Part shown: positions 8,357 through 50,677 of the stretch, in pieces
How positions within the stretch are numbered: position 1 is the first letter of the stretch
How the letters are laid out: each line of letters opens with the position of its first letter
Assembly: GCA_017302715.1 (NCBI GenBank)
Contig: JAFLCD010000003.1
Coordinates: forward strand, 83,154 to 147,153
DNA length: 64,000 nt
Origin: Deltaproteobacteria bacterium
Lineage (GTDB): Bacteria; Bdellovibrionota; UBA2394
Direction: 5' to 3'
Position numbers and translations under genes: made by a program
Notes under the pieces: generated by a model
Told to the model about the DNA's origin: nothing
Database searches by the model: none
Seen by the model: the letters and a program-made list of their open reading frames with translations, nothing else

Positions 8357-8358
8357 GA

Positions 8359-9657: not shown

Positions 9658-10478
9658 TTTTTGATATTTCAAAAAAAATACTTTCTTCGGCTTTAATTTT
9701 TTTGTTTTGCATGCCGGTTTATTCGGCTGATCAAAAAGTAAAAGATTTTAGATCGACGAATCAAAAAGTGGCTTTGCTCGGGATGTTTACTGAAGGAATT
9801 GATGAGCCTACGGAGACAAAACTCGTTCAAGATTTTAGAAAATCAATCAATCGCTACTCTAGAAGTTATGGTACATCTTCGATTGCTGTTTTTAGTTTAC
9901 AGAAAAATGATGGAAAGAAATTTTTTCGACCCTCGGAACAGTCGCTTGTAGAGTCTCAAAAGAAATTTCTTATTTCGGCTGCTAAAGATAATTCGGTAGA
10001 TATCATTGTGCTTGGTAGTTTGCGTCGATTAGATAGTGAAATTGAAGCGGAACTTCAGCTCTATGATCAGCGAATTGATACAGCATCTGCCGTAGAAAAA
10101 GCTCATTTTCCTTTGGCTGATTTTCATAAGGCCATCGAGACTTTAGTTTATCGAACGATGAATTATATGGATCGCGATGGATATGTTCATATGAGCGGCC
10201 AAGATTTCTTGGAACCTCCAGCGTCTTCTAATTCTGCACTCGCTCTTGATTCTTTGAAACCCGCAAAAAATGAATTTTCAATTAATCCTTCTGATTTAAG
10301 TTCGGGCGCTTTGGCTGGAGACGTTTCGATTGGTGGAGAGAAAACTCCCTTTTGGGAAACGTGGTGGTTCTGGACAATTCTTGGGGGCTCTTTAATTACC
10401 GCAGGTTCGCTGACGTATTATTTTGCTGTGGTGGACCAGCCGCCTAAACAAGCAAACGTTCATTTTAATCAGCCTTAA
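9654..10478 (+). CDS. secreted protein with conserved C-terminal 'WWFW' Gly-rich transmembrane anchor (paralogue 2)
   Basis: 274 aa with a signal peptide. Start overlaps the preceding stop (ATGA). C-terminus: ...TPFWETWWFWTILGGSLITAGSLTYYFAVVDQPP... Confidence 0.55.
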   Translation: MIFDISKKILSSALIFLFCMPVYSADQKVKDFRSTNQKVALLGMFTEGIDEPTETKLVQDFRKSINRYSRSYGTSSIAVFSLQKNDGKKFFRPSEQSLVESQKKFLISAAKDNSVDIIVLGSLRRLDSEIEAELQLYDQRIDTASAVEKAHFPLADFHKAIETLVYRTMNYMDRDGYVHMSGQDFLEPPASSNSALALDSLKPAKNEFSINPSDLSSGALAGDVSIGGEKTPFWETWWFWTILGGSLITAGSLTYYFAVVDQPPKQANVHFNQP

Positions 10479-20616: not shown

Positions 20617-21204
20617 TTGAAAAAGTTTCACTCTCTTTATAGCAAAAGTATTATTGGATTTACGTTGATCGAGTTAATGATCACGGTCGCGATCATTGCA
20701 GTTTTATCGGCCATCGCGATTCCCGTTTATACGAGTTATATCCGTCGCTCGTATTTGTCAGAAGCGACAACTTCGATTTCTGCGATCAAATCAGCCGAAG
20801 AAAGTTTTTTCACGATTAACAATTGTTATATCGAGGCGCTTGCTCATCCGGCGACTGTTCCCGCTGGTGTATCGGTTTCTTGGGATTCGTCGACCTTTTC
20901 TACACCCAATTCTTGGGCTCGAAACGCATTGGGAGTTCGACCTGATAAAAATGTTCGATTTCAATATCAAGTTTACGCTTCTAATTCCCTATCGGGCGGT
21001 GGATGCGGCAGTTCTCCAACGGCAGTTCCCGCAACTTTAGGTTGCGTGGCAAATGCCCAAACCGTTTTTGCTAACGCAGCTCTTTTTCCAAGTAATTGGT
21101 ATATTGTCGTCGCTCGAGGTGATTTAAATGGTGACAATACTTCTTCTACCATCATTTCTGGGATAGATGACTCTCAAATTGTCATGTGTAATGAGCTTCA
21201 ATAA
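20617..21204 (+). CDS. pilA: type IV pilin (prepilin, N-methylation site G|FTLIELM)
   Basis: TTG start immediately after the pilR stop, preceded by an AAGGAAGGAAAAGG RBS. Leader ...SIIG then [23 protein letters not shown]-terminal Cys pair. Confidence 0.8.
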   Translation: MKKFHSLYSKSIIGFTLIELMITVAIIAVLSAIAIPVYTSYIRRSYLSEATTSISAIKSAEESFFTINNCYIEALAHPATVPAGVSVSWDSSTFSTPNSWARNALGVRPDKNVRFQYQVYASNSLSGGGCGSSPTAVPATLGCVANAQTVFANAALFPSNWYIVVARGDLNGDNTSSTIISGIDDSQIVMCNELQ

Positions 21205-23121: not shown

Positions 23122-24245
23122 GGCGTGCTTACGGACTTAGTTTTCGTAGCATCATAAATAAAATATCCACCCACTCCCGCTAAAACGGCAACACCTGTCC
23201 AAAACCAAGGAGATTCAAAAATAGAACTTTCGCTTCGATCTTCATTTATCTGACTGTCTTTAGAAAAATCTTTAGCCCACGCAGTCGAAGGATCAGAAGG
23301 TTCTTTTAAAATCGAGCCCATTTGAGCCTGAGAGATAATAAGAGGAACAGCTTGGTTGCTTTCATCCCGAATCATAACGGCAATTCCCGCTGCTCGACTG
23401 AGATCTGTCGGCCGCGTGGCAATTAAATTTTCTTGCAGTTTTCGATGCTCGATATTTTTCCAAATAGATCGGTTCCAAATTTTGTCAAAGTGAGTTTCAT
23501 TTTTGCTAACCGTAAGCCAATAAGCTTGAAGTTCATCTCCATCGAGTAGATGAATTAAAAATTTTCCTTCTGTTAATTCAAGAGGCAAAGCTTTCTCTCG
23601 CCCGTTAATGAGAATTCTTTGTGCAAAATGAGAAGTCGTGGGCGATGGTAGTTGAATTTTATATTTGATATTTTGGTTTTGCTTAAGTTCCGACTGCAAT
23701 TTTGTAGAAAGTCGTGCTGCAAATGCTGGCTCTCCAAAAAATCCACGCACCTCTGGTGAAACTTCGTTGAGTCCTTCCTCGGCATCCCCAATCATTCTTT
23801 GCAGGGCTGCAATCTCGACCAAATCCTCAAATGTTTTTGGATAAGGCATGCTTTGACTGATCAATTGTCTCGCTTCGTTGAGTGAGGATTGCGCATCGGC
23901 GTAACGCAATTCTAAATAAAGCTGTGAAGCACGCTTTATTTTGCTCTCGATGGTCTCATCGTTTTCATCCTTTATTTTGGTTCGATCCAAAGATGAAAAG
24001 AGCGGAACTCGGCGATAAAATCCACTTAACCAAAGGTCTTCGTCTTTTTTAGATAGAGGTAGTCCAACCAGCGATGAAGCCTTTTCATCATGGGGGTTGA
24101 TGAGATAAGTTTGTGCATAGAGATTTTGAAGGGACAAAATGCAAAAGATTATGGCGCTGATGAGGCCTCTAAAAAGCTTATTAAATAAAGAACTAAACCC
24201 TATTTTCATGCTGCGGGTTCTCGCCTGGCAACAGAAGGAAGTCAA
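23118..24245 (-). CDS. secreted protein with conserved C-terminal 'WFW' Gly-rich transmembrane anchor (paralogue 3)
   Basis: 375 aa with a signal peptide. C-terminus: ...FESPWFWTGVAVLAGVGGYFIYDATKTKSVSTP. Same tail architecture as 8359..9657 and 9654..10478. Confidence 0.5.
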   Translation of the reverse strand: MTSFCCQARTRSMKIGFSSLFNKLFRGLISAIIFCILSLQNLYAQTYLINPHDEKASSLVGLPLSKKDEDLWLSGFYRRVPLFSSLDRTKIKDENDETIESKIKRASQLYLELRYADAQSSLNEARQLISQSMPYPKTFEDLVEIAALQRMIGDAEEGLNEVSPEVRGFFGEPAFAARLSTKLQSELKQNQNIKYKIQLPSPTTSHFAQRILINGREKALPLELTEGKFLIHLLDGDELQAYWLTVSKNETHFDKIWNRSIWKNIEHRKLQENLIATRPTDLSRAAGIAVMIRDESNQAVPLIISQAQMGSILKEPSDPSTAWAKDFSKDSQINEDRSESSIFESPWFWTGVAVLAGVGGYFIYDATKTKSVSTP

Positions 24246-25259
24246 GTGAGCATGAAGAAACCTTTGGGGCTTATTTTAGCTGGGGGGCAATCTAAACGGC
24301 TGTTTCCGGTAACCGTTCCTAAACCGCTTTTAAAGGTAAATGGAATTAGTTTACTTGAGCAATCCATTCGCAGATTGAAGGGATTCGATGTCTATATCGT
24401 AACGAATGCTCAAATCGCTGAAGAGATTCGCAAGGCTTTTAGAGCCGACAGAATAAAAATTCCCTCCTTTATTATAGAGCCTGAAGGTCGAGATACCGCC
24501 GCGGCCGTGGGTTATGGAATCCGAATGGCTGAAAAAAAACGAAAGCATCCTTGGGTGGCGGTGTTGAGTGCAGATCAATGGATGCCAGACGATAGAAATT
24601 TTTCAAAATTTTTAAAAAATATGCAGTCGGAGATTCAGAAATTTCCTGATGCTCTTTTTGTGGGCGGAAGTTCCGCTTCGACGAAAGCTCCTCATTCGCA
24701 TTCTCAGTTTGGTTGGATTGCGCCACAAAGGACCGAAAAGAATTCCAGTGCGGTGAAAAAATTTGTGGAAAAACCCAAAGGAACTCTGCTTCAAAAAATG
24801 CGAAAGTCTAAAGCACTCATCAATGCCGGAATGTTTTTTGGACGGCCTGAAGTTTTTTTAAAAGCTTATCAGAAGTTTTATCCTGAGATTTTGAGTGCCA
24901 CTCCAAAAAATTATTATCAATTAAAACGCCAACCGATTGATCGCGCGATTTTTGAAAACTACTCAAAGGTGCGAGTCATTGCCTTGCCCATGCGATGGGA
25001 AGATTTGGGAACTTGGGAGGATTGGTTTACGAATGTAGGTACGCAAGTTTCGACTAAGAATTCTGTGAAATCAAAAAAGATGAAGGTCAGCACGGGCGCC
25101 CAGATCCGCTGTAAAAAAGTTTTGATTTCGGCAGATGAAGATTTTGAAATTTTCGGATTTGATTTAGAAGATTTGGCCATTATTCAATCAGGCTCAAAGC
25201 TGCTTGTGATGCCGCTTTCCAAGACTCGAGATTTAAAAAATTATTTGGAGAATTTATAA
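24246..25259 (+). CDS. mannose-1-phosphate guanylyltransferase (NTP-transferase domain)
   Basis: N-terminal nucleotidyltransferase motif (LILAGGQSKRLFPVT..PKPLL). Length and layout match the GMP domain of type II PMI/GMP enzymes. GTG or ATG start. Confidence 0.75.
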   Translation: MSMKKPLGLILAGGQSKRLFPVTVPKPLLKVNGISLLEQSIRRLKGFDVYIVTNAQIAEEIRKAFRADRIKIPSFIIEPEGRDTAAAVGYGIRMAEKKRKHPWVAVLSADQWMPDDRNFSKFLKNMQSEIQKFPDALFVGGSSASTKAPHSHSQFGWIAPQRTEKNSSAVKKFVEKPKGTLLQKMRKSKALINAGMFFGRPEVFLKAYQKFYPEILSATPKNYYQLKRQPIDRAIFENYSKVRVIALPMRWEDLGTWEDWFTNVGTQVSTKNSVKSKKMKVSTGAQIRCKKVLISADEDFEIFGFDLEDLAIIQSGSKLLVMPLSKTRDLKNYLENL

Positions 25260-25600
25260 TGGATTGGACGGAGGAGCGCCCTTGGGGACGATTCAAAAAC
25301 TTATTGGATGTCGATTTTACCAAAGTCAAAATCATCGAAGTCGATGCAGGTAAGCGTTTAAGTTATCAATCTCACACTAAGCGCCGAGAATCGTGGACAG
25401 TCGCAAAGGGTGAAGCCGTCGTTATTTTAAATGACAAAGAAATCTTTTTAAAAGTAGGCGAGCATATCGATATTCCCTTGGGCGCAAAACATCGTCTTGA
25501 AAATCGAAGTTCAGAAAAGTTGAGCATCATCGAAGTTCAAACCGGAACTTATTTTGGAGAGGACGATATCAAGAGATATCAGGATGATTGGGGGCGTTGA
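25259..25600 (+). CDS. cupin domain protein = C-terminal mannose-6-phosphate isomerase (type II) module, separate ORF
   Basis: 113 aa. ERPWG...YQSHTKRRESWTV..GEAVV...IP.GAKHRLEN...IEVQTG.YFGEDDIKRY matches the C-terminal cupin of bifunctional ManC. TAATG junction with the preceding ORF. Confidence 0.7.
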   Translation: MDWTEERPWGRFKNLLDVDFTKVKIIEVDAGKRLSYQSHTKRRESWTVAKGEAVVILNDKEIFLKVGEHIDIPLGAKHRLENRSSEKLSIIEVQTGTYFGEDDIKRYQDDWGR

Positions 25601-26510
25601 GCGCTCGATTTTTAGAATCTCGAAATCCTCTTTTAAATTCTTTTGCCCAAATTAGATTCAATTGAAAAATTTTGAAAAAATTAAACAAGATCTCTTTTAA
25701 GTAAAAAGATTTTAACTTAATACTACGAGACAAAATCGCAGAAAAAAAAGCGAGTCCTAAAAATTTTCCAAAAATTTTAAATCTTTTTTTAGGTGTAATT
25801 TTAAATTCTTTTGGTAGGTCTCCATCGTAAAATCCTCGCCAGTAACCCATGAACCTTGCTTTTTCTAAAATATTTTCTTTTTTGATGAGGTGAGCCGTAT
25901 GCGTGATAGAGAGCTCTGGGATATATCGAATTTCACTACGAAGATTAGGTAAGTCTTCTATTGTCTTTAAAAATCCGATATCTTCGCAGGCCAACCAATC
26001 TGACCGAAAGCCTCCCACTTGTTTAAAAAAACTTCGCCGAATAAGTAAATTGCCACTATGTAAAAATCGGAGAGATTGATTTTGAGAACTTAGAAATTCA
26101 TGAAACTCCATCAAATGAAGCGCAAAAGCCCAAGAAAATTTGAGATCTTCGAAATGTACGCCTCCATTAAATGCAATCCAGTTGGGATATTTTTTTGTAA
26201 GTATTTGAGCTGTTTTCATCCAATCTGCATTCCAAATGCAATCGCTATCTAAAAAAGCAATCCATTGATTAGTCGCTTGAGACGCCCCAAGGTTCCTTGC
26301 TTCTCCGGCAAACATTCTTCGATTGGGAAAGCTAAATTTGACTCGGTCTTTATATTTTAGAAGTTCGCTGTCAAGATTTTTAGATGATGAGTCGACAACT
26401 ATGATTTCAACTATATCCTCCGATTGAATTTGATTTAAGACAGAATCAATGCATCGAGAAAGAATATATGTAGGGGTTTGAAATGAGGGAATGACGACGG
26501 ATAAGTTCAT
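25569..26510 (-). CDS. glycosyltransferase family 2
   Basis: N-terminal GT-A motif (LSVVIPSFQTPTYILSRCIDSVLNQ) and DSD motif (FLDSDCIW). Confidence 0.7.
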   Translation of the reverse strand: MNLSVVIPSFQTPTYILSRCIDSVLNQIQSEDIVEIIVVDSSSKNLDSELLKYKDRVKFSFPNRRMFAGEARNLGASQATNQWIAFLDSDCIWNADWMKTAQILTKKYPNWIAFNGGVHFEDLKFSWAFALHLMEFHEFLSSQNQSLRFLHSGNLLIRRSFFKQVGGFRSDWLACEDIGFLKTIEDLPNLRSEIRYIPELSITHTAHLIKKENILEKARFMGYWRGFYDGDLPKEFKITPKKRFKIFGKFLGLAFFSAILSRSIKLKSFYLKEILFNFFKIFQLNLIWAKEFKRGFRDSKNRALNAPNHPDIS

Positions 26511-26575
26511 AAACTACAATCAAAATCTTAAACGGGTTATCAATTAGAAAACAATCATGAGTTAAGTAGTGAATA

Positions 26576-27424
26576 ATGAAATCATCTCCAAAATTTTCTT
26601 TAGTTTTATGTACGGTTGGTCGAGAGCTAGAGCCGATCAAGCTTTTGAAGTCTCTATCAAATCAGAGCTACAAGGAATTTGAATTGATTATTGTGGATCA
26701 AAACGAAGACGAGCGAATTTCGAATGTTCTTCGTGCCCATTCATTTCCATTCAAAATTATTTATATAAAAAATCAGAGAGGGCTATCTAAATCAAGAAAT
26801 GTTGGCTTGAAGCATATTTCTGGAGATGTCGTAGCTTTTCCAGACGATGATTCTTGGTATCCCGAGAATTTGTTGAAGGAAGTGGAGAAATGTTTTTTAA
26901 ATGATCCCGCTACCGATGGATTTATTGGTCTTACTGTAGACGAAAAAAATATTCCTTCTACAGGATGTCGTGATACCAACTCCTCTTTGGTCACGCGTTT
27001 TAGTCTTCTCAGAATGTCTGTTTCAAATAGTATTTTTTTAGGAAGGCAAATCATTAAGACCGTGGGAGACTTCGATGAGACCTTAGGTATTGGTGCCGGC
27101 ACGCCCTGGGGAGCTTCGGAAGAGACAGATTACTTAATTCGAGTGTTTGATGCAGGATTTGTATTACATTTCAATCCTGATATTAAAATTTTTCACCCTC
27201 AAATATTTCTTAGTTACGATCAAAAATATTTAGAAAAAGCCTTTTCATATGGAGCGGGCTTCGGACGAATCTTAAGGAAGCACCGGTATCCTTTAGGGTT
27301 TATCGCGTGGAAACTTTTTAAAACATTTGGAGGATGTGTTCTTGCGGTATTGAGATTTAAAATCCCACTTGCTAAATATTATCTTTATTCTTTTCGCGGG
27401 CGATTGAAGGGGGTGATTTCATAA
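26576..27424 (+). CDS. glycosyltransferase family 2
   Basis: FSLVLCTVGRE...LLKSLSNQSYKEFELIIVDQN and a DxD region (FPDDDSWY). Confidence 0.7.
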   Translation: MKSSPKFSLVLCTVGRELEPIKLLKSLSNQSYKEFELIIVDQNEDERISNVLRAHSFPFKIIYIKNQRGLSKSRNVGLKHISGDVVAFPDDDSWYPENLLKEVEKCFLNDPATDGFIGLTVDEKNIPSTGCRDTNSSLVTRFSLLRMSVSNSIFLGRQIIKTVGDFDETLGIGAGTPWGASEETDYLIRVFDAGFVLHFNPDIKIFHPQIFLSYDQKYLEKAFSYGAGFGRILRKHRYPLGFIAWKLFKTFGGCVLAVLRFKIPLAKYYLYSFRGRLKGVIS

Positions 27425-28600
27425 TTTTGGGTTATTTAAAAATCCCATGGTCTTAAATGCTAATTGAAATCGTTGCTTCCAGGTATGGTCTCTTAAGCAT
27501 CGTTCCCGGCCCTTCGAGGCAATTCTATTTCTTAGAGAATCATTTTTTAAATAAAAGTTAATTTTATCTACGAGCTCTTCTCTATTTTTATAGCATTCAA
27601 TCTCGCTTCCTATTTTAAAAAATTCTTCAAGTTCTTGCATATACTCTACTAAATAAAAACCTCCTGACATTGGAACTTCAAAATCTCTTAAGCGAATTTG
27701 CAATATTCTTTGATCGCCTTGCAAATCTCCCACACTAGAGAAACCGAGGTTGATTTTCGATTTACTGAAAGTTTTTACTACGTCCGTATCCGAAAGGACC
27801 CCACCTAAATATTGAGCAGGAATATTTTTAAATTTTTCTTGAATGAGATTGCTCTTACTAAAAGTGTAATTTTTTACAAAACGAATTAAATCTTTTGGTA
27901 ACGATAAAACGGAAAATTCTCTTAAAATTTTTTTAAAGTATCGGTTTGTCTTAGTAATAAATCTTGAATCTAAGTTTTTCCAACCGTAGCCAAAAACAAA
28001 TGTCGGAATTCCCTGACTAAATAAATATTTTATTAAATTTGGCCTTTCTCCATAGCATTGACCAACAAAGGACACATCGTATTCTTTTGGCAAATCATAA
28101 GGTTTATAAAAATTTTCGCTTGCAGCTTCTTGGCAGTAAATGGGATTGGCGCCCAAGGCGCGATAGTCGTCCAATCTAAATTTTTCTGGGACTAGGCACC
28201 AATCATAAATGGGGGAGATCTCTGAAACTAAGTCTAATTGATATGAGGCATTGCAATACCAATTCACTGTTTTAATTCTTAGGTGCTTAATCTCTTCAAT
28301 TGTTTCTTTAGTGATGCAAGCATCATAAAAATAGCTGAAAAAGAGATCGATTCTATCTTTTCTGTGATGGTGAGAGATTTGTTTCAAAATTGCTTCACTC
28401 ACAACAGGCCTATTCTTCTTTATAAATTTCATTTGAATTGCATCAGATTTATCTAAGTTAGAAAAAGTTGCTGCAAGGTCGTAGTCGAATTCAATTACTT
28501 CATGCCCCATTTCAACCAGGGAATTAAATAAATTATTTCTCCATATATTGGAATGTATGGCCGAATTAGGAGAACGATCCGAGGCATAAAAAATTCTCAT
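27419..28600 (-). CDS. CgeB-family (DUF3880 / Glyco_trans_1_2-like) glycosyltransferase candidate
   Basis: The C-terminal region (RLRDFEVPMSGGFYLVEY...ECYKNREELVDKINFYLKND..R..IA..GRERCLRDHTW) resembles the CgeB spore-maturation glycosyltransferase family. Confidence 0.45.
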   Translation of the reverse strand: MRIFYASDRSPNSAIHSNIWRNNLFNSLVEMGHEVIEFDYDLAATFSNLDKSDAIQMKFIKKNRPVVSEAILKQISHHHRKDRIDLFFSYFYDACITKETIEEIKHLRIKTVNWYCNASYQLDLVSEISPIYDWCLVPEKFRLDDYRALGANPIYCQEAASENFYKPYDLPKEYDVSFVGQCYGERPNLIKYLFSQGIPTFVFGYGWKNLDSRFITKTNRYFKKILREFSVLSLPKDLIRFVKNYTFSKSNLIQEKFKNIPAQYLGGVLSDTDVVKTFSKSKINLGFSSVGDLQGDQRILQIRLRDFEVPMSGGFYLVEYMQELEEFFKIGSEIECYKNREELVDKINFYLKNDSLRNRIASKGRERCLRDHTWKQRFQLAFKTMGFLNNPKL

Positions 28601-28621
28601 AAGAATTCTCTTGGTGACATG

Positions 28622-30352
28622 CTATAAATTTTCTTCGTTGTGTTCTAAATGGAATTCAATTTTCTCTGAACAAGAATGAATCACTTCTTCTTTATGAGAG
28701 ACGATAATAAGTGTCTTGTGCCCGACAAGCGCTTTTAATTCTGAAAGAATTTCTTTTTCAGTTTTGGTGTCAAGTCCCGCTGTTACTTCATCAAGAATTA
28801 AAATCTTTGGATCGAAATAAAGTGCTCTAGCGAGCCCCAATCGTTGACGTTGACCTCCTGAAAATCGAATGCCTTTATCGCCAACCAAAGAATTTAAGCC
28901 TTCCGGAAGAGATTTGACATAGTCATACAAGCGAGCACCAGCTAAAGCGCTCCAAATTTGCTTATCATCATGCTCTCCACATTCGATGCCAAAAGCTATA
29001 TTTTCTCGAACGGTTCCATCTAGGACAAAAACTGTTTGTGAAACGTAACCGATATTTTTTCTCCAAGAATTAAGATCATCAAAAATATTTAAACCAGCCG
29101 ATAAAATTTTGCCCTCCGAGGGCTCAAGTAGCCCCAAAAGCAAATTAACCATTGTAGACTTTCCGGAGCCAGACGGTCCAAAAAAGGCGACCGCATGATT
29201 TTTTTTTATCGTATGGGATAAATTTTTTAAAATAAATCGGTTGGTGTTTTTATAGCGAAATGAAATATTTTGAATTTCAATTTCGCTATCAAACTTTAAT
29301 TTCAAGTGATCTTCCTTTGGTCGGTCATATGAAATTTTTATTTGATCTAGCTCTCTTTGCAAAAACTCAATTGATGGTTGGAAAAAAGAAACTTGATTTA
29401 CGCAAGAAATGAATCTGCTGATAGATGGCATAATACGATAGGCAGCAGCTATGAAAAGTCCAAGAATAGGAATTGGCGACTCATTACCTCCACTTCTAAT
29501 AAAAATGATTAAAGATATAAAAAGTGCACCACCAATCATAATTATTTCCATCAAAGGCCGCGGCAACTCGCCTAATACACGCATTTTACGTACAGAATCC
29601 GAATGATCATCTACGGCGGCGGAATATCTTTTGAAGAAATATTTTTGGCTACCGAATATCTTTACTTCTTTGATTCCGAGAAAAGTCTGATCAATCCATT
29701 TATAGATTAAAAAACCTTCGCGCTGGGCCCTTGCTCCTGAATTTGCTAGTTTTCTATTCACATAAAAATAATAGACAAAAAGAAAACCGAGAAGAACGAG
29801 GGCCACAATAATAGTGGATGTGCCACTGACTATGAGCAGAAGAGCAAATATCATAATGACGGTAAGTGCTTCATTTATGAGAGAAAGAATTGGCCATAGA
29901 ATGCCATCAAATATATTTGTCACTTCAAGCTCAATAGTTCTGGAAAGTCGATGAGTTTCGCGTTCTAAATGAATCATGTAGGGCGCATGAATATAAGCCT
30001 TCATAAAACGCTTAGAGAGAGAGTTTCGTTCCTCCGAAACCCATCGAGTTTGGCGATCTATGATAAATAATAAAAAAATATTTTTTGTTAAATATAAAAC
30101 TAAAAGCACTAAACTTAAAGTAAGAAGGGCGTGGTGCTGGAAAAAGGGAATAGAAATTCTGTTAACTCGCTCATACCAAGGAGAATTTTGAATATCATTC
30201 ATCTGACTAATGAAACTAATCAGAGGTAATAACAGGCTCATCACTACTATCTCTAAAAATCCAGAGATAGAAAAGAAGAAGAGGAGAAGTAAGATTCTTC
30301 TTTTAGCTCGAGTGTCCAGAATGTGCCAGAGTTGGCTTACTAATTTTGCCAC
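28622..30352 (-). CDS. ABC transporter, fused permease/ATPase (MsbA/PglK-like type I exporter)
   Basis: 576 aa with six N-terminal TM helices. Walker A (GPSGSGKST), signature (LSGGQRQRLGLARAL), Walker B (ILILDE). Confidence 0.85.
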   Translation of the reverse strand: MAKLVSQLWHILDTRAKRRILLLLFFFSISGFLEIVVMSLLLPLISFISQMNDIQNSPWYERVNRISIPFFQHHALLTLSLVLLVLYLTKNIFLLFIIDRQTRWVSEERNSLSKRFMKAYIHAPYMIHLERETHRLSRTIELEVTNIFDGILWPILSLINEALTVIMIFALLLIVSGTSTIIVALVLLGFLFVYYFYVNRKLANSGARAQREGFLIYKWIDQTFLGIKEVKIFGSQKYFFKRYSAAVDDHSDSVRKMRVLGELPRPLMEIIMIGGALFISLIIFIRSGGNESPIPILGLFIAAAYRIMPSISRFISCVNQVSFFQPSIEFLQRELDQIKISYDRPKEDHLKLKFDSEIEIQNISFRYKNTNRFILKNLSHTIKKNHAVAFFGPSGSGKSTMVNLLLGLLEPSEGKILSAGLNIFDDLNSWRKNIGYVSQTVFVLDGTVRENIAFGIECGEHDDKQIWSALAGARLYDYVKSLPEGLNSLVGDKGIRFSGGQRQRLGLARALYFDPKILILDEVTAGLDTKTEKEILSELKALVGHKTLIIVSHKEEVIHSCSEKIEFHLEHNEENL

Positions 30353-30459
30353 TACAATTCATCCCTAAAAAATTTAAAATACCTCTTTCTAAAATTTAAG
30401 CCAAGCTTGTCTATAGTTTGAAACAACTTTGCTAATTCAGCCAAATTCAGTTTACTAAG

Positions 30460-31110
30460 TTGATGAAAGTTCATCTTGGTTGTGGGGACCGTTATTTAGA
30501 TGGATACCTAAATATTGATTTGCCAACTAGTGATCACAGCGTGATGACTCAGTTAAAAATTGATAAGATTGCAAATGTAACTGAGTTATCTTTTCCCAAA
30601 GTTTCGATACAAGAAGTTCGCCTTCATCATTTGTTTGAGCATTTCAATCGCCCGCAATCTTTTGCTTTTATAGCTGCATGGCGGTCATGGCTAGTCCCTT
30701 TTGGCCTTCTTCGAATTGAAGTTCCTGATTTTAGGCGCACTGCTTGGTCAATTCTTTCTCCATTTTCTTCTTCAAAGACTAAAATGACAGGCATTCGACA
30801 TCTATTTGGATCTCACGAGTCTTCATGGGCCATTCATTGTGAGGGTTGGACCGTTGCTTCTCTGACAGATTTGCTAAAAGCTTTTGATTTTAAGATTATC
30901 AAGTGTCAAAAAAACTCTTGGAAGCATACTTACAATTTTGAAATTTTTGCAATTCGTTCTGAAAAAGAAATAAGTCTAGAAATGGCCTGTCAGATAGCAG
31001 AAAAAAATCTTAAAAATTATTTAGTCGACTTCACTGATTCTGAAGTGAAAATGCTGGCGGTATGGAAGAAAAAATTTCAAGAAACAGCAGTAAATTGCTG
31101 GGGAAAATAG
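30460..31110 (+). CDS. hypothetical protein, possible class I SAM-dependent methyltransferase-like
   Basis: N-terminal VHLGCGDRYLDGYLNID and later LHHLFEHF resemble methyltransferase motif I and post-I. Weak. Confidence 0.3.
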   Translation: MMKVHLGCGDRYLDGYLNIDLPTSDHSVMTQLKIDKIANVTELSFPKVSIQEVRLHHLFEHFNRPQSFAFIAAWRSWLVPFGLLRIEVPDFRRTAWSILSPFSSSKTKMTGIRHLFGSHESSWAIHCEGWTVASLTDLLKAFDFKIIKCQKNSWKHTYNFEIFAIRSEKEISLEMACQIAEKNLKNYLVDFTDSEVKMLAVWKKKFQETAVNCWGK

Positions 31111-31113
31111 ATC

Positions 31114-32292
31114 TTGAAAGTTTTACATACTGTTGAATTTTACCATCCAAGCAAAGGCGGAGCTCAGGAGGCTATTCGGCAAATCTCAGAAGCATTGGTG
31201 AGGCTGGGACATGAAGTCACAGTTGCTACCACTTTTGATCCTGATAGAAACTTTTCGGAACTAAATGGAGTAAAAATTAAGGAATTTTCGATAAGTGGAA
31301 ATTGGGTAAGTGGGGTTAAAGGTGACCTCGAGGGTTACAGAAATTTTGTGCGAAATTCTAATTTTGATATTGTATTGAATTATGCCGCTCAACAGTGGAC
31401 GACGGACGCACTTTTAGATGTATTGCCAGAAATTAAATCAAAGAAAATATTGGTGCCCTGTGGTTTTTCTGGCCTTTATAATTCCCATTACAAAAATTAT
31501 TTTCAAAAAATGAGGGAATGGCTTTTGCTCTATGATAGTTGTATTTTTTTATCTCGGAATTATCGCGATTATGAATTTGCAAAAATTGTTGGTATTAAAA
31601 ATATACAGTGTATTCCAAATGGAGCTTCTCGAGCGGAGTTTGAATTGGAATTTGATTGCTCTCTTCGAAGACAATTAGGAATTCCTAATGACGCTTTTCT
31701 TATTTTGCATGTGGGATCATTCACAAAACTTAAGGGTCAGTACGAGGCTTTAAAGATCTTTTCTCTCTCTAAGATTAGAAATTCTTATTTTTTACTTATT
31801 GGAAATACTTCAAATTACTTTGATTTTCTTCGCTGTAAATTTTTGTGCCATTTTATCAATATAAAATCCTTCTTCTCAGGTTCTAAAAAGAAAGTTTTAA
31901 TTCGAAATCTTCCTCGTGAATCTACGGTCGCAGCTTTTCATGAAGCTGATCTTTTTCTTTTTCCTTCTCGAATCGAATGCTCTCCTCTTGTTTTATTTGA
32001 AGCTATGGCATCTAAATGCGCGTTCTTAGTGAGCAGAGTTGGTAATGCTGAAGAAATTATTTCTTTGTCGAATGGCGGTTTTTTGATTGAGGGAGATCTT
32101 GACCCATTGGGGTATTCTGTCCCGAATCTAAAAAATGGAGCAAAAAAATTATCTGATCTTTGGCAAAATCCTACTTTAAGAAATGAGAGTGCTCAGAATG
32201 GCTTTTTGACTTGGCAAGAGTCGTTTACATGGGAGTCAATAGCTGTGCGTTATGAGCATTTATACAAAAAGCTCATTAGTGAAAAAATATGA
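31114..32292 (+). CDS. glycosyltransferase family 1 (GT4-type)
   Basis: GT-B architecture: N-terminal KVLHTVEFYHPSKGGAQE and a C-terminal EX7E-like region (FPSRIECSPLVLFEAMA). TTG start. Confidence 0.75.
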   Translation: MKVLHTVEFYHPSKGGAQEAIRQISEALVRLGHEVTVATTFDPDRNFSELNGVKIKEFSISGNWVSGVKGDLEGYRNFVRNSNFDIVLNYAAQQWTTDALLDVLPEIKSKKILVPCGFSGLYNSHYKNYFQKMREWLLLYDSCIFLSRNYRDYEFAKIVGIKNIQCIPNGASRAEFELEFDCSLRRQLGIPNDAFLILHVGSFTKLKGQYEALKIFSLSKIRNSYFLLIGNTSNYFDFLRCKFLCHFINIKSFFSGSKKKVLIRNLPRESTVAAFHEADLFLFPSRIECSPLVLFEAMASKCAFLVSRVGNAEEIISLSNGGFLIEGDLDPLGYSVPNLKNGAKKLSDLWQNPTLRNESAQNGFLTWQESFTWESIAVRYEHLYKKLISEKI

Positions 32293-33401
32293 GTTATAAA
32301 ACCCCACCTTTGATTTCAGTTTTGATGCCCGTCTTCAACGGAGAGAAATATCTTGATGCTGCTATTAGAAGTGTTTTGCGACAAAGTTATTCTCATTTTG
32401 AGCTTATCATTTTAAATGACGGTTCTACTGATGGGAGCGCAAAAATAATTCAATCCTTTAAAGATCCTCGAATTATCTATATCAAAAATGATCAAAACTT
32501 AGGGCTCGTCAAAACTCCAAATCTTGGAATTGAAAGGGCTAGAGGTCAGTATATTGCTCGAATAGACAGTGATGACATTCTCTTTTCTGATCGCTTCATG
32601 AAGCAGGTGGATTTTTTAGAATCTCACCCGGACGCCGTAGCGTGTGGAAGCTGGTATTTTACTATGAAGTTTTTACCAAATACCTTAGTAAAAGTGCCAA
32701 CCCGGCCTGAAGACATTGCTTCGGAGCTTATCTTCAAGAATGTAATGGCTCATTCGAGTATGATGATGCGAGCTGATAGCCTTCGGCAGTATAAAATTTT
32801 CTATTCGGATAAATACCCATTTATCGAAGACTGGGAATTATGGTTAAGACTTTCTAAAGTAGGGCGACTCTATAATATTCCGGAGCCATTGTTTCTTTAT
32901 CGGCTGCATTCTCAAAGCGTAAGCTTTAAAAACTTCGATGTTCAAAATCAAAGTATTCAAAAAATTATCGCCTCCTCCTTTGAAAGTTTTGGAATCGATT
33001 TGTCGGTCGAAGAGAGTCAGGCATTGTACGACTTGGTAAATTCTGATCGTAATCTTCAGTTCGATTTATTAAAAAAAGTTGAAAGTTTGCTTCTGAAAAT
33101 AAAACAAAGAAATGAAATTCAAAAAGTGATTGCCACTCAAAGCTTTGAAATGACTTTAGCTCGTCTGTGGTTTCGTATTGTGCTCAAATTTTCTAAGCGA
33201 GGTTTAGATACTTGGAAAACTTATTATCAATCGCCGTTAAGAAGGCAGGATATAGTCTCTTCATTTTCTTTATTCGTTTTTTTTATGCTTTGTTTTTTCA
33301 AGCAGAGATTAAGACTTCATTCTATAAAACAATGGATGGAGTCTTGGACTTCTAAAGCTTTTTATAGAGCTCTATTTGAGATTGTCGCCGTGAGAAAATA
33401 A
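32289..33401 (+). CDS. glycosyltransferase family 2
   Basis: ISVLMPVFNGEKYLDAAIRSVLRQSY..FELIILNDGSTDGS and a DxD motif (IDSDDIL). ATGA overlap with the upstream GT4. Confidence 0.75.
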   Translation: MSYKTPPLISVLMPVFNGEKYLDAAIRSVLRQSYSHFELIILNDGSTDGSAKIIQSFKDPRIIYIKNDQNLGLVKTPNLGIERARGQYIARIDSDDILFSDRFMKQVDFLESHPDAVACGSWYFTMKFLPNTLVKVPTRPEDIASELIFKNVMAHSSMMMRADSLRQYKIFYSDKYPFIEDWELWLRLSKVGRLYNIPEPLFLYRLHSQSVSFKNFDVQNQSIQKIIASSFESFGIDLSVEESQALYDLVNSDRNLQFDLLKKVESLLLKIKQRNEIQKVIATQSFEMTLARLWFRIVLKFSKRGLDTWKTYYQSPLRRQDIVSSFSLFVFFMLCFFKQRLRLHSIKQWMESWTSKAFYRALFEIVAVRK

Positions 33402-33436
33402 AAAACCCCCGAAGATTTCTCTGCGGGGGTTTTGAA
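33402..33436. terminator. bidirectional rho-independent terminator hairpin between convergent GT2 gene and pilin gene
   Basis: AAAAACCCCCGAAGATTTCTCTGCGGGGGTTTTG: a 6-bp GC stem (CCCCCG/CGGGGG) flanked by an A-run and a T-run. Confidence 0.7.
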
Positions 33437-33458: not shown

Positions 33459-34058
33459 TTAGTTAAGTTCGCCGAAGATCTGAATTCCACCAGCATTTGG
33501 TGTGCCATTAGTAACGGATATATCTCTCCAAAATGCAGAGTAAGGAGCTGATCCATCAAGATCTCCTTGAGCAATCGCGGATACGGATTGTGTGCTGCTG
33601 CTACCATCGGTAATAGCTCCAGCTGCTGATGCAGTAGCTAAGTTAGTACTTGCCGCTGTAACTAAAGCTGTACCAGCAGGAGTGCCGCTCAGTACGCCAG
33701 CGTTATAAGCGAACAAAACAGGAGACGAACTTGCGAATCCAAGTACGTTAAAGGCTCCAGCGTCTACGCCGCTTTCCCAGGCTACTTTAGCACCAGTAGG
33801 AGTTGTTCTTGGAACAGAAACTGTTTGAGCCATAAAAGTTGGGACAGCTTCACCACCGCCCGAAGAGGCAGCTCTTGGACGTGTGAAGAAAGTTACTTCA
33901 GCATCAACCAAGTTTTTCAAAAGCAAAGGTGCTTCTGCAGTTTTCGATCGTTTGATGTAATTTAAGAACGCTGGGATCGCCACAGCGGCCAAGATTCCGA
34001 TGATCGCCACAACGATCATAAGCTCGATAAGGGTGAAACCCTTTTTTGTCATTTTCAT
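33459..34058 (-). CDS. type IV pilin, second copy (short 6-aa leader, G|FTLIELM)
   Basis: MKMTKKG then [24 protein letters not shown]..., a classic type IVa prepilin N-terminus. Ala/Gly/Ser/Thr-rich C-terminal domain. Confidence 0.8.
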
Positions 34059-34353
34059 AAAGTCCTCCTAAAAAAATTTATTTTCATCCCTTCTCGAGCG
34101 CGGCTTTGAGATCGCACCGAGAAATTCCTCTACCGACCATCATCTCCTAAAGCATAAGTCATGCCAAAGAATTTCAAGCGAAAATCCATGACGCGCTGCG
34201 GCTCTAAGTTATGAAAATCTCTAGGTAAGTTTAATGTTTTCGTTTCTCTGAACCAAGCTAAATTATCGGCACAAAATGTAACGAAAAATGTCGCTTTTGA
34301 CGTGCTTTAGTCTTTTGTGACAAATTTTGTCGCCCTCTATAAGATCTAGTTTC

Positions 34354-35415
34354 ATGTCGGTTTCGGTAATTATTCCCTGCTTAAACGAAGAAGGCTCCAT
34401 CGAGGAATGTATTCGTTTGGTGAAAGCGGCGTTTGCGGGCGAGGGCAAACTCGAAATTATAGTCGCTGACAACGGTTCTACGGATCGTTCGAGTGAACTC
34501 GCCAAAAAAGCTGGTGCCCGGGTGGTCGAAGAGCGCCGCCAAGGATATGGTTCAGCCATTTTATGTGGAATCCGCGAAGCGACAGGCGAGTTCTTGGTCA
34601 TAGGAGACGCCGACAATACTTATGACTTTAGGGACGCTGCCATTCTTGTTGAAAAATTAAAAGAAGGTGCCGAGTTTGCAATCGGCGATCGGATTCACGG
34701 TGAAGTCGATAAAGGTGCGATGCCTTGGTTGCATATGCATTTAGGTACGCCGGTGTTGACCTGGGTGCTCAATCAATTTTTTGGATGCCGTGTTCACGAT
34801 ATTAACTGCGGACTTCGTGCGATTCGTCGCGAGGCCGTTGAACGTTTGCGCTTACGATCTCCCGGAATGGAATTCGCGAGCGAGATGGTGATTCATGCGC
34901 AAAAAGCCGGACTTAAATTTGCAGAGACTCCGATTCGCTATTACAGACGTCATCACGGTCAAGCGAAGCTCAGAACATTTCGCGATGGCTGGCGACATTT
35001 GCGTTTCATTTTGCTCTGCGCTCCTTTTCCTCTTTATTTTTTGCCGGCGGCGGCGAGTGCTATTTTGAGTGCATATTTTTATACGCAGCCTCGGTTAGGG
35101 TTTTTGGTGCTTGCAAGTTTATTTAGCTTGGCGGCGTTTCAGTTTTTTATTTTCGGCGTTTTAGCCAAAACTTATTTATGGGTCGCCGATTCTTTTTTGG
35201 TCGATAGGGGATTTGGAAGTTTGATAGATAAATTCAAACTCGAATATGGAATTCTCACTTCGCTTTTATTTTTATTGGGCGGAATCGTTTTAGTGAGAGA
35301 ATTCGACATTTCAAATTTGATTCGCGGTGCATCACTGATTGCTCTTTCGCTTCAAATTTTCTTCTCCTCGTTTTTACTCTCTACGATCATGTTTAAAAAA
35401 CGAGACACGATTTAA
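34354..35415 (+). CDS. GT2 polyprenyl-phosphate glycosyltransferase (DPM1/GtrB/ArnC-like) with C-terminal TM helices
   Basis: VSVIIPCLNEEGSIEECI...IIVADNGSTDRS...GYGSAIL.G...GEFLVIGDADNTYD followed by hydrophobic helices. Start set to the internal ATG (MSVSVII). Locally higher GC than neighbouring genes. Confidence 0.7.
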   Translation: MSVSVIIPCLNEEGSIEECIRLVKAAFAGEGKLEIIVADNGSTDRSSELAKKAGARVVEERRQGYGSAILCGIREATGEFLVIGDADNTYDFRDAAILVEKLKEGAEFAIGDRIHGEVDKGAMPWLHMHLGTPVLTWVLNQFFGCRVHDINCGLRAIRREAVERLRLRSPGMEFASEMVIHAQKAGLKFAETPIRYYRRHHGQAKLRTFRDGWRHLRFILLCAPFPLYFLPAAASAILSAYFYTQPRLGFLVLASLFSLAAFQFFIFGVLAKTYLWVADSFLVDRGFGSLIDKFKLEYGILTSLLFLLGGIVLVREFDISNLIRGASLIALSLQIFFSSFLLSTIMFKKRDTI

Positions 35416-35436: not shown

Positions 35437-35754
35437 ATGAGTGCGCAGCTTGAATGTGTCGGTGTTGATATTTTTGTTTGGTCGAATGGCGGAATTCCAA
35501 AAGTTCCTGCTGAAATAGCAGGTCTCAAAATGGATTGTATTTCTCAGCGTGGACTAAAATGTTCTCCGGGACCTACGCCCGAAGGTTTGATCGTCGATTG
35601 GTATGTGTGTCGCTACACAAGTAAATCGGATGTAGGTGACGATGCGATTCAAAAATTGTTGAGCGAAATTTCTAAGCAGATGAAGTGGGAAAAAGTTCAA
35701 AAACTTTTTCGCCAAAACAATATCGATTTATTTTCAAAGGTGTACGAAGCATGA
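35437..35754 (+). CDS. hypothetical small protein
   Basis: 105 aa ORF between the GT2 gene and the dehydrogenase; no motifs. May be non-coding. Confidence 0.3.
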   Translation: MSAQLECVGVDIFVWSNGGIPKVPAEIAGLKMDCISQRGLKCSPGPTPEGLIVDWYVCRYTSKSDVGDDAIQKLLSEISKQMKWEKVQKLFRQNNIDLFSKVYEA

Positions 35755-39327: not shown

Positions 39328-40350
39328 TCATCCTAGTCGCAGCGGTGGAGAAGTGGAAAGCAAAGTCTGATGACGCAGCGTGTAAAAATGATCATGCCAT
39401 TGTCTGTGATGGTTTGTGCAGAGTAAGACGAGATTCGCTGGTGAATTCGTACCTCCCTGACTGACCGGAACTCGATGATGAATATCTATATAATGAGAGC
39501 TTTCGCATTTAAGTCCGTTAGCTTTCCTAAACTGACACTGGCTTTTGTCCCTTTGAAAGACAAAGACTCTCGTAACAGGCGAAATCGGAATTCTAACCTT
39601 CAATTTATTTAAGTTCTTCACAAGTGGTCCCGGGACCACTTGTGAAAGCTCTTGTGAGAGCGATTCGGGCTCATTTTTATTCGGGAGAATCTCTGCACTC
39701 TTGGCGCTAATTGATTTTAATTCCTTCTCCCGAGTCGTTTTTGAGACGTCCTTTAAATTTTTCATCAGCGGATCATTTTTTTTCAAAAATTCATCCACAG
39801 TTTTTTCTAACGTCTGTTCAAGATTAAAATTAGTCCGTGATTTATTCGCACACAAAGTTTGAGCTCTCTTTATTTTCTTAAGCAATGAATCCGAAATTTC
39901 AATTCGAAATAGATTTCGATTTTCTGAGACCGGCCGAATAAATTCTCTTTGAATACTTTCTGGAAACTTCTTAGCTACTTCTTTTTCAAGTTCTACTCTT
40001 GTCATCGCAGTCGCCTTTGCAATCCATTCGCTTTGATTTTCTTTGGTTAAAATTGGAACAATTCGCCGCGCCTTTGAGACCGAAATATTTCCAGAAATAA
40101 TTTCTTTCTTGAGCTCAGGGATCTCTTTCACTTTTCGAGATATTTTTGAAAAAGTATAGGCATTCGCTTCAGAGAATTGCAGGGCCTCAACACAATAAGA
40201 AAATAAACTCGAATACCCTAAAGTTAAATAAATTTTCTCTTCGCTTACTTTTTCCAGGGTTTCTATAAGTTCGCCCTCGGTTTTTCGATAACATTGCGAG
40301 AGTGAAATAGCTTTTTCATGAATCTTATTTTGATCAGAATTTAATTTCAT
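39328..40350 (-). CDS. HNH endonuclease domain protein (N-terminal DUF222-like region + C-terminal HNH)
   Basis: C-terminal CQFR.ANGLKCESSHYIDIHHRVPVSQGGTNSPANLVLLCTNHHRQWH (HNH with zinc-ligand cysteines). Start set to MKLNSDQ, which has an AAGGAG RBS 7 nt upstream on the minus strand. Confidence 0.65.
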   Translation of the reverse strand: MKLNSDQNKIHEKAISLSQCYRKTEGELIETLEKVSEEKIYLTLGYSSLFSYCVEALQFSEANAYTFSKISRKVKEIPELKKEIISGNISVSKARRIVPILTKENQSEWIAKATAMTRVELEKEVAKKFPESIQREFIRPVSENRNLFRIEISDSLLKKIKRAQTLCANKSRTNFNLEQTLEKTVDEFLKKNDPLMKNLKDVSKTTREKELKSISAKSAEILPNKNEPESLSQELSQVVPGPLVKNLNKLKVRIPISPVTRVFVFQRDKSQCQFRKANGLKCESSHYIDIHHRVPVSQGGTNSPANLVLLCTNHHRQWHDHFYTLRHQTLLSTSPPLRLG

Positions 40351-40473
40351 TTTCCGCTCCTTACTTTCTCTATTTTTGCTCTCGCGAATTAAAATTTTTT
40401 TCAAAATTTTCTTTCTGGCGCATGGATAAAGCAGCGGTGAGATTTAGCAAGGGAAAAATATTTAATTGAGCGA

Positions 40474-50590: not shown

Positions 50591-50677
50591 TGGTGCTCGT
50601 GCCCGGAATCGAACCGGGACGCCCTTGCGGACCCAGGATTTTAAGTCCTGTGCGTCTACCAATTCCGCCACACGAGC
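50591..50677 (-). tRNA. tRNA-Leu (anticodon UAA), type II tRNA with long variable arm, CCA encoded
   Basis: Reverse complement GCTCGTGTGGCGGAATTGGTAGACGCACAGGACTTAAAATCCTGGGTCCGCAAGGGCGTCCCGGTTCGATTCCGGGCACGAGCACCA folds as a cloverleaf: 7-bp acceptor, 3-bp D stem, CAGGA/TCCTG anticodon stem with loop CTTAAAA, and a TTCGATT T-loop. Confidence 0.85.

Follow-up and report, generated by a model that had tools for sequence, protein, structure and literature searches.

The gene studied here encodes a family 2 glycosyltransferase (GT2) and lies in a stretch of 64,000 nt from a Deltaproteobacteria bacterium (GTDB Bdellovibrionota; UBA2394), i.e., positions 83,154 to 147,153 of the forward strand of contig JAFLCD010000003.1 in assembly GCA_017302715.1, hereafter the window. 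Our evidence throughout consists of computation on sequences, predicted structures and gene neighbourhoods, and it leads us to conclude, with a confidence of roughly 60%, that this enzyme makes an undecaprenyl-phosphate-linked hexose for the periplasmic glycosylation of type IV pilins, together with an STT3/AglB-like membrane transferase of the GT-C type encoded in the same pilin locus. Taken alone the GT2 is an ordinary member of a large and well-understood class; what matters is the conserved, pilin-linked pair that it forms with its STT3-like partner. Related loci and protein records are labelled L### and P####, respectively; L019, L021, L022 and L026 are metagenome loci, and L098 is an activated-sludge contig. 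The features of the pair are as follows, PfDPMS being the dolichyl-phosphate mannose synthase (DPMS) of Pyrococcus furiosus.

34354..35415, plus strand: gene for a predicted polyprenyl-phosphate glycosyltransferase of family GT2, 353 aa (open reading frame, Pfam, NCBIfam, PDB sequence matches, AlphaFold2 (AF2) and Foldseek)

34354..34968, plus strand: predicted cytoplasmic GT-A catalytic domain, residues 1-205, the GC-rich part of the gene (invariant residues aligned with PfDPMS)

34975..35412, plus strand: predicted membrane domain, residues 208-353, an amphipathic interface helix and four transmembrane helices (hydropathy, AF2, full-length alignment with PfDPMS)

21217..23121, plus strand: predicted STT3/AglB-homologous GT-C membrane transferase, 634 aa (archaeo_STT3, Foldseek, hhalign, conserved motifs)

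The open reading frame (ORF) of the GT2 runs from an ATG at 34354 to the stop at 35415, which gives 353 aa; an in-frame TTG lies upstream at 34327, and the consensus of 40 homologues starts at MSVSV. A 100% identical protein is on record for an NCBI metagenome-assembled genome (MAG; P0001). A preliminary description of the window, made from its letters alone, had recognised a GT2 catalytic domain followed by C-terminal transmembrane helices and had placed the product among GtrB/DPM1-like enzymes, and both proposals held up. Residues 4-165 match Pfam PF00535 (Glycos_transf_2) with E 1.6e-28, hydropathy identified four hydrophobic segments in the C-terminal third (219-237, 251-269, 296-314 and 328-346), and the AF2 model, with a mean predicted local distance difference test score (pLDDT) of 90.9, has helices at 208-222, 226-243, 248-278, 296-315 and 319-352. 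The top NCBIfam models all describe lipid-phosphate sugar transferases, i.e., AglJ (TIGR04182; 137.7 bits, E 4.9e-40), the haloarchaeal dolichyl-phosphate (Dol-P) hexose transferase (E 1.5e-27), PpgS and ArnC (NF007986; 49.8 bits), each scoring under its cutoff, which for the AglJ and ArnC equivalogs is 325 and 529 bits, respectively. The nearest PDB sequences found with HMMER were PfDPMS (5mlz, E 1.1e-17) and then ArnC, and the Foldseek comparison was led by PfDPMS, ArnC and GtrB, with PfDPMS (374 columns) providing the sole full-length alignment. Together, these matches support an enzyme of the GtrB/DPM1/ArnC type.

Conservation points the same way. Across the alignment of 40 homologues, on which all statements about GT2 conservation are based, E12, D39, D85-A-D87, R113, R199 and K205 are invariant, and HMMER aligns them with E12, D39, D89-A-D91, R117, R202 and K208 of PfDPMS, which bind the donor and the metal, position the Dol-P and close the acceptor loop (PMC5526996). 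The marks of the DPMS/GtrB/ArnC/AglJ class are all found in the GT2, i.e., the DxD metal and donor site (D85-A-D87), the residues for positioning the lipid phosphate and for the acceptor loop (R113, R199 and K205), and interface helices with a C-terminal transmembrane anchor. The invariant D39 corresponds to the guanine contact of PfDPMS, a position that in our judgement does not discriminate between donors. By sequence, motifs and predicted fold, the gene product is a polyprenyl-phosphate glycosyltransferase with a DPMS-type four-helix membrane domain, and its class predicts that it most likely converts a nucleoside diphosphate sugar and polyprenyl phosphate to a polyprenyl-phosphate-linked sugar. 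PfDPMS, a type III DPMS (5mlz; PMC5526996, PMC12992685), resembles it in near-equal size, GT-A domain, interface helices and four transmembrane helices; the differences are an identity of 23%, the replacement of the metal ligand Gln93 by Thr89, a global TM-score of 0.56 that is due to differing domain orientation, and the lipid, which is dolichyl phosphate for PfDPMS and would be bacterial undecaprenyl phosphate for the GT2. Judged by sequence, the GT2 forms a separate subfamily within a known class and is no orthologue of AglJ, ArnC or GtrB.

We regard it as very improbable that the protein is not a lipid-phosphate enzyme at all and is instead a membrane-anchored GT2 acting on another acceptor, e.g., a processive polysaccharide synthase or an enzyme of the glucosyl-3-phosphoglycerate synthase (GpgS) type. 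The fold matches do include GpgS structures (TM ~0.5 across the catalytic domain), and there are weak hidden Markov model (HMM) matches to PgaC and NodC, but all of these span the GT-A core only (~235 columns, or residues 2-108), whereas the matches counted as full-length in weighing this alternative were DPMS, ArnC and GtrB. In addition, the Arg that positions Dol-P and the Arg and Lys of the acceptor loop in PfDPMS are invariant, no QxxRW-type processive-synthase motif was noticed in the protein, and its four helices would be too few for a synthase channel.

The second member of the pair, which the preliminary description had already suggested as a functional partner of the GT2, can now be named more specifically as an STT3/AglB homologue. 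Its gene comes directly after pilB, pilT, pilC, pilS, pilR and pilA1, and its NCBI annotation is hypothetical; Pfam gave no match to it, and NCBIfam gave archaeo_STT3 with E 2.7e-28. The AF2 model (pLDDT 91.3), made from a 20-member alignment, found as its top Foldseek match the AglB of Archaeoglobus fulgidus (AfAglB) with a bound dolichol-linked ligand (7e9s; E 4e-19, TMq 0.76); eukaryotic STT3, PglB and the C-mannosyltransferase DPY19 came next. With E 1.8e-20, AfAglB is also matched by the family profile, which aligns the motifs FiDtDcYY with GNDPWYY, LGqvDHHilEa with LGFNDHHIWEA, nvsEA with TIAE and QkRF with QNRF, and hhalign against seven archaeal-type AglB-like proteins returned a probability of 100% and E 2.7e-42 over 544 columns. 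The donor that AfAglB uses is monophosphate-linked, the type of product made by GT2s of the DPMS class.

In the family alignment of 20 members, from which GT-C conservation is reported here, D45, D159-H-H, E164, E330, Q391/R393 and P495-N496-x-G498 are invariant, with K392 and H499 present in at least 90%. The residues that define an oligosaccharyltransferase site, i.e., the DxD of external loop 1 (EL1), the second acidic motif, the Glu of the EL5 TIXE/SVSE motif and the Arg for the lipid phosphate, are found as D43/D45, D159-H-H...E164, V-S-E330 and Q391-K-R393, invariant or nearly so. The WWDYG motif occurs in 0/20 members, and the window protein reads N-P-N-L-G-H at the homologous position; P-N-x-G is found in 20/20, with the next residue H in 19 and S in one, and some further representatives have T-N-x-G-H. 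At this position hhalign sets N-l-G-H against D-Y-G-n, with the downstream Y..V..N.F still in register. On these alignments, the GT-C is a true STT3/AglB homologue in which the metal and lipid-phosphate site has been kept and the acceptor-binding motif rewritten.

An HMMER scan of 1.84 billion representatives gave a GT-C core family of ~30 clusters (at 50% identity) above roughly 350 bits, after which the score falls to ~180 bits with ~600-aa PNxGS proteins of Myxococcota-like MAGs and then archaeal-type AglB. All seven matches in the genome collection (7/7) are Bacteriovoracaceae or Bdellovibrionota MAGs, and the core family is small and confined to MAGs of the Bacteriovoracaceae/Bdellovibrionota type. 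Several relatives also encode a second, diverged GT-C paralogue with ~33% identity to the window protein (L010 17975..19606; L021 8053..9909; L014 and L015, which are the same MAG). The second-tier STT3-like proteins of the Myxococcota-like MAGs are of ~600 aa, with PNxGS and lacking WWDYG (relevant positions: L017 4107..5294 and 8001..9794; L016 10001..11806); in L017 the second-tier protein has two pilin genes and a sigma-54 activator at a distance of 3 kb, and that of L016 is away from pilins, so that a pilin link in one of two loci is suggestive only.

The GT2 and the GT-C share their locus with the following genes and gene groups.

20617..21204, plus strand: pilA1, major-pilin-type, after pilB/T/C/S/R (domain and family matches, position)

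23118..24245, minus strand: X375, a conserved 375-aa protein, convergent with the GT-C gene and overlapping its end (no Pfam or NCBIfam match)

24246..25259, with the cupin part at 25259..25600, plus strand: split ManC, GDP-mannose pyrophosphorylase (TIGR01479, Pfam)

25569..33401: variable low-GC glycan cluster between ManC and pilin 2, gene GC 0.33-0.37 (Pfam, NCBIfam)

28622..30352, minus strand: PglK/MsbA-like ABC exporter (282.7 bits to PglK, under the cutoff)

33459..34058, minus strand: second type IV pilin (pilin 2), 199 aa, candidate glycosylation target (N_methyl motif, Myxococcus-type PilA model)

The comparison of relatives revealed a conserved module in which pilA1 is followed by the GT-C, the convergent X375, the split ManC, variable genes, one to three copies of pilin 2 on the opposite strand, the GT2 and icd. 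The GT2 and the GT-C stand in one pilin locus in at least nine related Bacteriovoracaceae-type genomes (besides L006, the window, L001/L013/L019, L005, L012/L026, L021, L022, the contig of P0043, and L003 with L010, which are ~21 kb apart on the same contig), which supports the pairing proposed earlier, and in two loci the neighbourhood is closer still. This sharing of a locus holds for every related genome with a contig of sufficient reach. In L006, whose region is rearranged and has no icd, the GT2 is followed after 69 nt by the co-directional GT-C and then a pilin gene, and in L021 the second GT-C paralogue, likewise co-directional, is upstream of the GT2 with 92 nt between them. pilA1 is directly upstream of the GT-C in six of the seven genome-collection loci (the seventh, L014, begins inside the GT-C) and also in the metagenome loci L019, L021, L022 and L026. 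In L022 and L024, the GT2 comes immediately after the cupin half of ManC. Among distant GT2 relatives (~45% identity, with PF26629, GT2_TM_C), the gene is found immediately upstream of DUF2142 or PMT_2 membrane proteins, and a large polytopic membrane protein lies within 5 kb in 19 of 38 loci, a crude test without a proper background. Genomic association of the GT2 with a GT-C that would use its product was found, and the protein at 21217..23121 is the only GT-C-like one found in the window, none having appeared in Pfam scans of the other ORFs of at least 150 aa.

The same enzyme might instead feed another envelope glycoconjugate, e.g., an LPS/O-antigen side branch (GtrB-like), lipid A (ArnC-like), an exopolysaccharide or general protein glycosylation, in which case the proximity to pilins would be synteny without functional meaning. 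The enzyme-class evidence would be identical, the GT2 is tightly syntenic also with the housekeeping genes icd and DsbD and is transcribed apart from the GT-C in the window, relatives at ~40-45% identity are found in polysaccharide clusters alongside membrane proteins of other kinds, and a PMT_2-type protein is encoded near the GT2 in L003. Even so, we think this explanation unlikely: no ArnT, GtrC, GtrA or GT-C-type protein other than the pilin-linked one was found in the window, the rearranged L006 has kept the GT2 with the GT-C and a pilin gene while lacking icd, and in L021 it is a GT-C paralogue that directly precedes the GT2.

In the pilin glycosylation pathway that we favour, ManC would make GDP-mannose, and the GT2, at the cytoplasmic face of the inner membrane, would transfer a hexose from a nucleotide sugar, most likely GDP-mannose, to undecaprenyl phosphate. 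The sugar is probably mannose, GDP-mannose being the probable donor because ManC is among the conserved core genes and is found immediately before the GT2 in two relatives. The lipid-monophosphate-linked sugar would then be flipped to the periplasmic face, for which the candidates are a GtrA encoded beside icd in L003 and, in the window, the PglK/MsbA-like ABC exporter at 28622..30352, and the GT-C would take it as donor to glycosylate the type IV pilins of the locus in the periplasm. In the window genome, the glycosyltransferases of the variable cluster and the PglK-like exporter may, ahead of the transfer, build the lipid-linked sugar up into an oligosaccharide; relatives that lack the cluster (L022, L001) would make a monosaccharide or short glycan. 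Since no priming phosphoglycosyltransferase was found among the Pfam matches of window ORFs of at least 150 aa, the GT2 may act there as AglJ does, i.e., prime a monophosphate-linked oligosaccharide, with extension, flipping and en bloc transfer to follow.

Several points weigh against this pathway. The GT2 and the GT-C of the window are 11.2 kb apart in different transcription units, L020 and L023 show no GT-C within the readable 10 kb, and the order GT2, icd, DsbD is conserved as well, so synteny alone could account for part of the linkage. A tblastn search with the GtrA of L003, which is encoded two genes away from the GT2 there, found no homologue in the window. As for the sugar, AglJ, the best HMM match, adds a hexose and not specifically mannose, and NCBI names one GT2 homologue a 'dolichol-P-glucose synthetase'. 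The pilins lack a conserved N-x-S/T sequon and the GT-C lacks WWDYG, and the related genomes used are metagenome assemblies, all of them. On the sequon, each window pilin has one N-x-S/T near its C-terminus, but 10 orthologous pilins do not share its position, as would fit the loss of WWD in the GT-C. Classical N-glycosylation of the pilins was rejected on the combined evidence of these 10 orthologues and the missing GT-C motif.

Several known systems are comparable. In Haloferax volcanii, AglB-dependent N-glycosylation starts with AglJ, which attaches the first hexose to dolichyl phosphate (PMC3871713). The likeness to the GT2 lies in the link to an AglB-type transferase and, in the window, in further glycosyltransferases and a possible flippase; the differences are that the host of the GT2 is bacterial, its GT-C partner lacks WWDYG, and the target would be a bacterial pilin. 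We entertain tentatively, as possible yet clearly less probable than the general pathway, a full archaeal-style lipid-monophosphate pathway in bacteria, in which AglJ-like priming of undecaprenyl phosphate would be followed by extension by glycosyltransferases, PglK-like flipping, and glycosylation of type IV pilins off the classical sequon by the NPNxG AglB homologue. GtrB (with GtrA/GtrC) and ArnC (with ArnT/ArnEF) share with the GT2 their class and their part as a cytoplasmic undecaprenyl-phosphate-sugar synthase feeding a periplasmic GT-C. Their fold matches, however, have E 1e-14 to 1e-11 (GtrB E 2e-11) over ~300 columns and leave the second helix pair uncovered, their targets are O-antigen and lipid A and not protein, and scans of the window found no GtrA, GtrC, ArnT, ArnE/F or other arn genes, i.e., nothing of a gtrABC or arn context.

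The nearest system-level analogue is the pilA-tfpW locus of Pseudomonas aeruginosa group IV strains, in which the GT-C TfpW, encoded directly downstream of pilA, arabinosylates the pilin in the periplasm via a lipid-carrier-linked precursor, and in some species the genes for the D-Araf donor cluster with pilA-tfpW (bioRxiv 10.1101/2020.04.19.049825). As in the window, a GT-C directly follows pilA and the lipid-linked sugar is made in the cytoplasm. TfpW, however, is not an STT3 homologue but Emb/Aft-like, and it has a TPR C-terminus as well as a proline-rich motif; its donor comes from a DprE1/DprE2-type pathway with no GT2, and the sugar in the window is probably a hexose. Compared with STT3, AglB and PglB, the GT-C has a short C-terminal domain (634 aa in total versus about 750-870) and is pilA-adjacent in bacteria. 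At the -2 position of its sequon, the PglB of Campylobacter jejuni favours a residue with a negative charge (PMC4894442). A full-text literature search returned no description of an STT3 homologue adjoining a bacterial pilA, TfpW being the nearest analogue. To our knowledge, the bacterial STT3 relatives described so far are N-oligosaccharyltransferases of the PglB type that use diphosphate-linked donors and a sequon, and the routes that we know of for bacterial pilin glycosylation are O-oligosaccharyltransferases of the PglL/TfpO type or the Emb-like TfpW.

The conserved pairing of a GT2 with an STT3/AglB-like GT-C beside the pilins of an uncultured lineage of predatory bacteria points to an undescribed sugar-coating of the pilus. 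If this is true, it would be a third mechanistic type of pilin glycosylation and a bacterial counterpart of the AglB-dependent glycosylation of archaeal type IV filaments (pilins and archaellins), and it would show the extent to which an STT3 acceptor site can be re-tooled. Should the archaeal-style version be true, Bacteria would have in the GT-C their first pilin glycosyltransferase of the STT3 family, and also their first STT3 relative to receive a monophosphate donor made by a GT2. The system is made up of few parts, i.e., pilin, GT-C, GT2 and ManC, and should be reconstitutable in E. coli. The variable low-GC cassette between the pilin genes suggests strain-level diversification of the pilus surface, which bears on prey recognition and phage evasion in predatory bacteria.

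The composition of the GT2 gene had been read in the preliminary description as a hint of horizontal acquisition, its N-terminal two-thirds appearing to be about 50% GC against a background of roughly 40%. The contrast itself was confirmed by calculation, the GC being 0.495 in the first 660 nt, 0.39 in the rest of the gene and 0.404 in the window. GC at third codon positions (GC3) is 0.468 over the first 220 codons versus 0.347 expected from the codon usage of the window, and 0/924 sliding windows of 220 codons drawn from the other 49 genes attain either GC 0.495 or GC3 0.468, making this the most extreme coding stretch of the window. For the gene as a whole, GC is 0.456 and GC3 0.441, the latter the highest of 50 genes (50 ORFs; mean GC 0.405 +/- 0.029, mean GC3 0.345 +/- 0.038). 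The composition is atypical, as proposed, but about half of this is explained by the protein: the amino-acid sequence combined with the codon usage of the window predicts GC 0.454 for the catalytic part, since the soluble domain is rich in Gly, Ala, Arg, Asp and Glu and the membrane domain in Phe, Leu and Ile. Of the excess of ~nine points, roughly half is amino-acid composition and the other half a real synonymous excess.

The orthologues place this excess in its lineage. A falling GC gradient from the N- to the C-terminal part is seen also in L001, L003, L005 and L098, and not in L006, and the GC3 of the orthologue tracks its own genome in L001, L003, L005 and L006. The GT2 gene of L098, the closest relative, is likewise raised (GC 0.454, GC3 0.416), and L098 has the same order of GT2, a 105-aa ORF and icd, with identities of 86.6, 85.7 and 95.4%, respectively. 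The neighbouring icd has a GC3 of 0.406, and the remaining synonymous excess, common to the sister lineage and icd, remains a small lineage-level feature. As to divergence, the GT2 is 73.7, 70.9 and 67.6% identical to L005, L003 and L001, compared with 79.7, 78.2 and 74.9% for RF3 and 78.2, 75.1 and 73.4% for GSIII; it ranks the relatives (L005 > L003 > L001) as these housekeeping genes do, in agreement with their divergence, and DsbD also ranks L005 first. The order of pilin (minus strand), GT2 (plus strand), icd, DsbD (minus strand) and, further on, RF3 and GSIII is kept in at least six relatives whose GT2s are 61-74% identical, the pilin/GT2/icd/DsbD order being found in L001, L003, L005, the contig of P0043, L012/L026, L020, L022 and L023. 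No integrase and no meaningful flanking repeat was found around the GT2, and the only tRNA of the window is at 50591.

That the gene, or its GC-rich catalytic part, came by horizontal transfer from a GC-richer donor is scarcely credible on this evidence. In its favour are the extreme 220-codon stretch, a GC3 well above expectation there and highest for the whole gene among the 50, and, at a much deeper level, the fact that the top named matches of both GT2 and GT-C are archaeal Agl proteins. Against it, the gene order is kept in at least six relatives, the identities rank as those of RF3 and GSIII do, L098 shares both the order and the raised GC, orthologue GC3 follows each genome, composition alone predicts much of the GC of the domain, no tRNA, integrase or flanking repeat adjoins the GT2, and the compositionally odd block of the locus is a different one, i.e., the low-GC cluster at 25569..33401. 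Recent transfer is already contradicted, having been ruled out by the composition and expected-GC calculations, the orthologues, the similarity ranking, L098, and the tRNA and repeat searches; the nearest homologues come from close relatives in conserved synteny, the very finding that the preliminary description had named as telling against its suggestion. With synteny, similarity ranking and the sister genome all congruent and mobility features lacking, the GT2 is a vertically inherited core gene of the Bacteriovoracaceae-type lineage and no recent import.

The spacer between pilin 2 and the GT2, and the elements in it, are as follows.

34059..34353: divergent intergenic region, 295 nt (the spacers of L001, L003 and L005 are 288, 299 and 357 nt)

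34151..34166, minus strand: putative sigma-54-type -24/-12 element (TGGCATGACTTATGCT) upstream of pilin 2 (pattern match, conserved; function inferred)

34282..34302 and 34318..34332: two GACAAA-N-TTTGTC-type palindromes, the second being the exact one (both conserved in a four-genome alignment)

The earlier claim that the two genes diverge across a 295-nt shared promoter region agrees with this arrangement: pilin 2 at 33459..34058 and the GT2 part across 34059..34353, the spacer containing a putative sigma-54-type promoter for the pilin and, by the GT2 start, the palindromes, all of them conserved. The sigma-54-type element lies 93 nt upstream of the pilin 2 start. Matches to this pattern are no more frequent across the window than chance; a TGGCA-N..-TGCT element is found at the equivalent place in L001, L003 and L005, reading TGGCAC in these relatives and TGGCAT in the window, and most of the spacer has otherwise diverged. 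The copy at 34318..34332 is the only zero-mismatch GACAAA-N-TTTGTC palindrome of the window, and the palindromes end 22 nt before the GT2 start codon, overlapping a weak sigma-70-like -35 box of that gene. A sigma-54 activator of the PilR type is encoded at 19123..20616. The PilR of P. aeruginosa binds TGTC-containing repeats, and because of this precedent we read the palindromes of 34282..34332 as candidate binding (enhancer) sites at which the activator encoded in the window may act; if they are PilR-type sites, pilin 2 and the GT2 share a regulatory region. No RNA element in the spacer matched Rfam at the gathering threshold. On the far side of pilin 2, between its end and the convergent end of the last GT2 gene of the cassette, a GC-rich hairpin (AAAACCCCCGAAGA / TCTGCGGGGGTTTT) at 33402..33433 is probably a bidirectional terminator.

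The remaining genes of the pilin locus can be described more briefly. Relatives have one to three copies of pilin 2 at the corresponding place, and the pilins have a nearly invariant Ser after the GDLDGD loop. X375 is found right after the GT-C in L001/L013, L005, L009-L012, L014, L021 and L022, thus in almost every related locus, and may be an accessory factor of it; the protein has hydrophobic N- and C-terminal segments. The two halves of ManC are overlapping ORFs that cover positions 4-344 and 361-466 of TIGR01479, and the split is kept in relatives and is therefore no sequencing frameshift. The cluster at 25569..33401 encodes, besides the ABC exporter, three GT2s, a GT4, a Glyco_trans_1_2 protein and a 216-aa ORF without an assigned family; L001, L005, L022 and the contig of P0043 lack it or have a different one, and by composition it is the best candidate for horizontal gene transfer in the locus.

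Downstream of the GT2, the 105-aa ORF at 35437..35754 (plus strand) overlaps the start of icd and matches an isocitrate dehydrogenase C-terminal domain (PF18324, E 2.9e-11); it is kept in L098 (85.7% identity) and absent in L001, L003 and the contig of P0003, where icd directly follows the GT2. Between the DsbD region and RF3, an ORF with an HNH-endonuclease domain at 39328..40404 (minus strand; 358 aa, GC 0.378) is without a counterpart at the corresponding site of L001, L003 and L005 and may be a small mobile insertion. Towards the end of the window, a membrane protein at 61730..62692 (minus strand) reaches a borderline score of 33.1 bits with LPG_synthase_TM, whose cutoff is 33.4, and two ORFs matching the same family lie ~7 kb downstream of the GT2 in L008, the contig of a distant GT2 relative.

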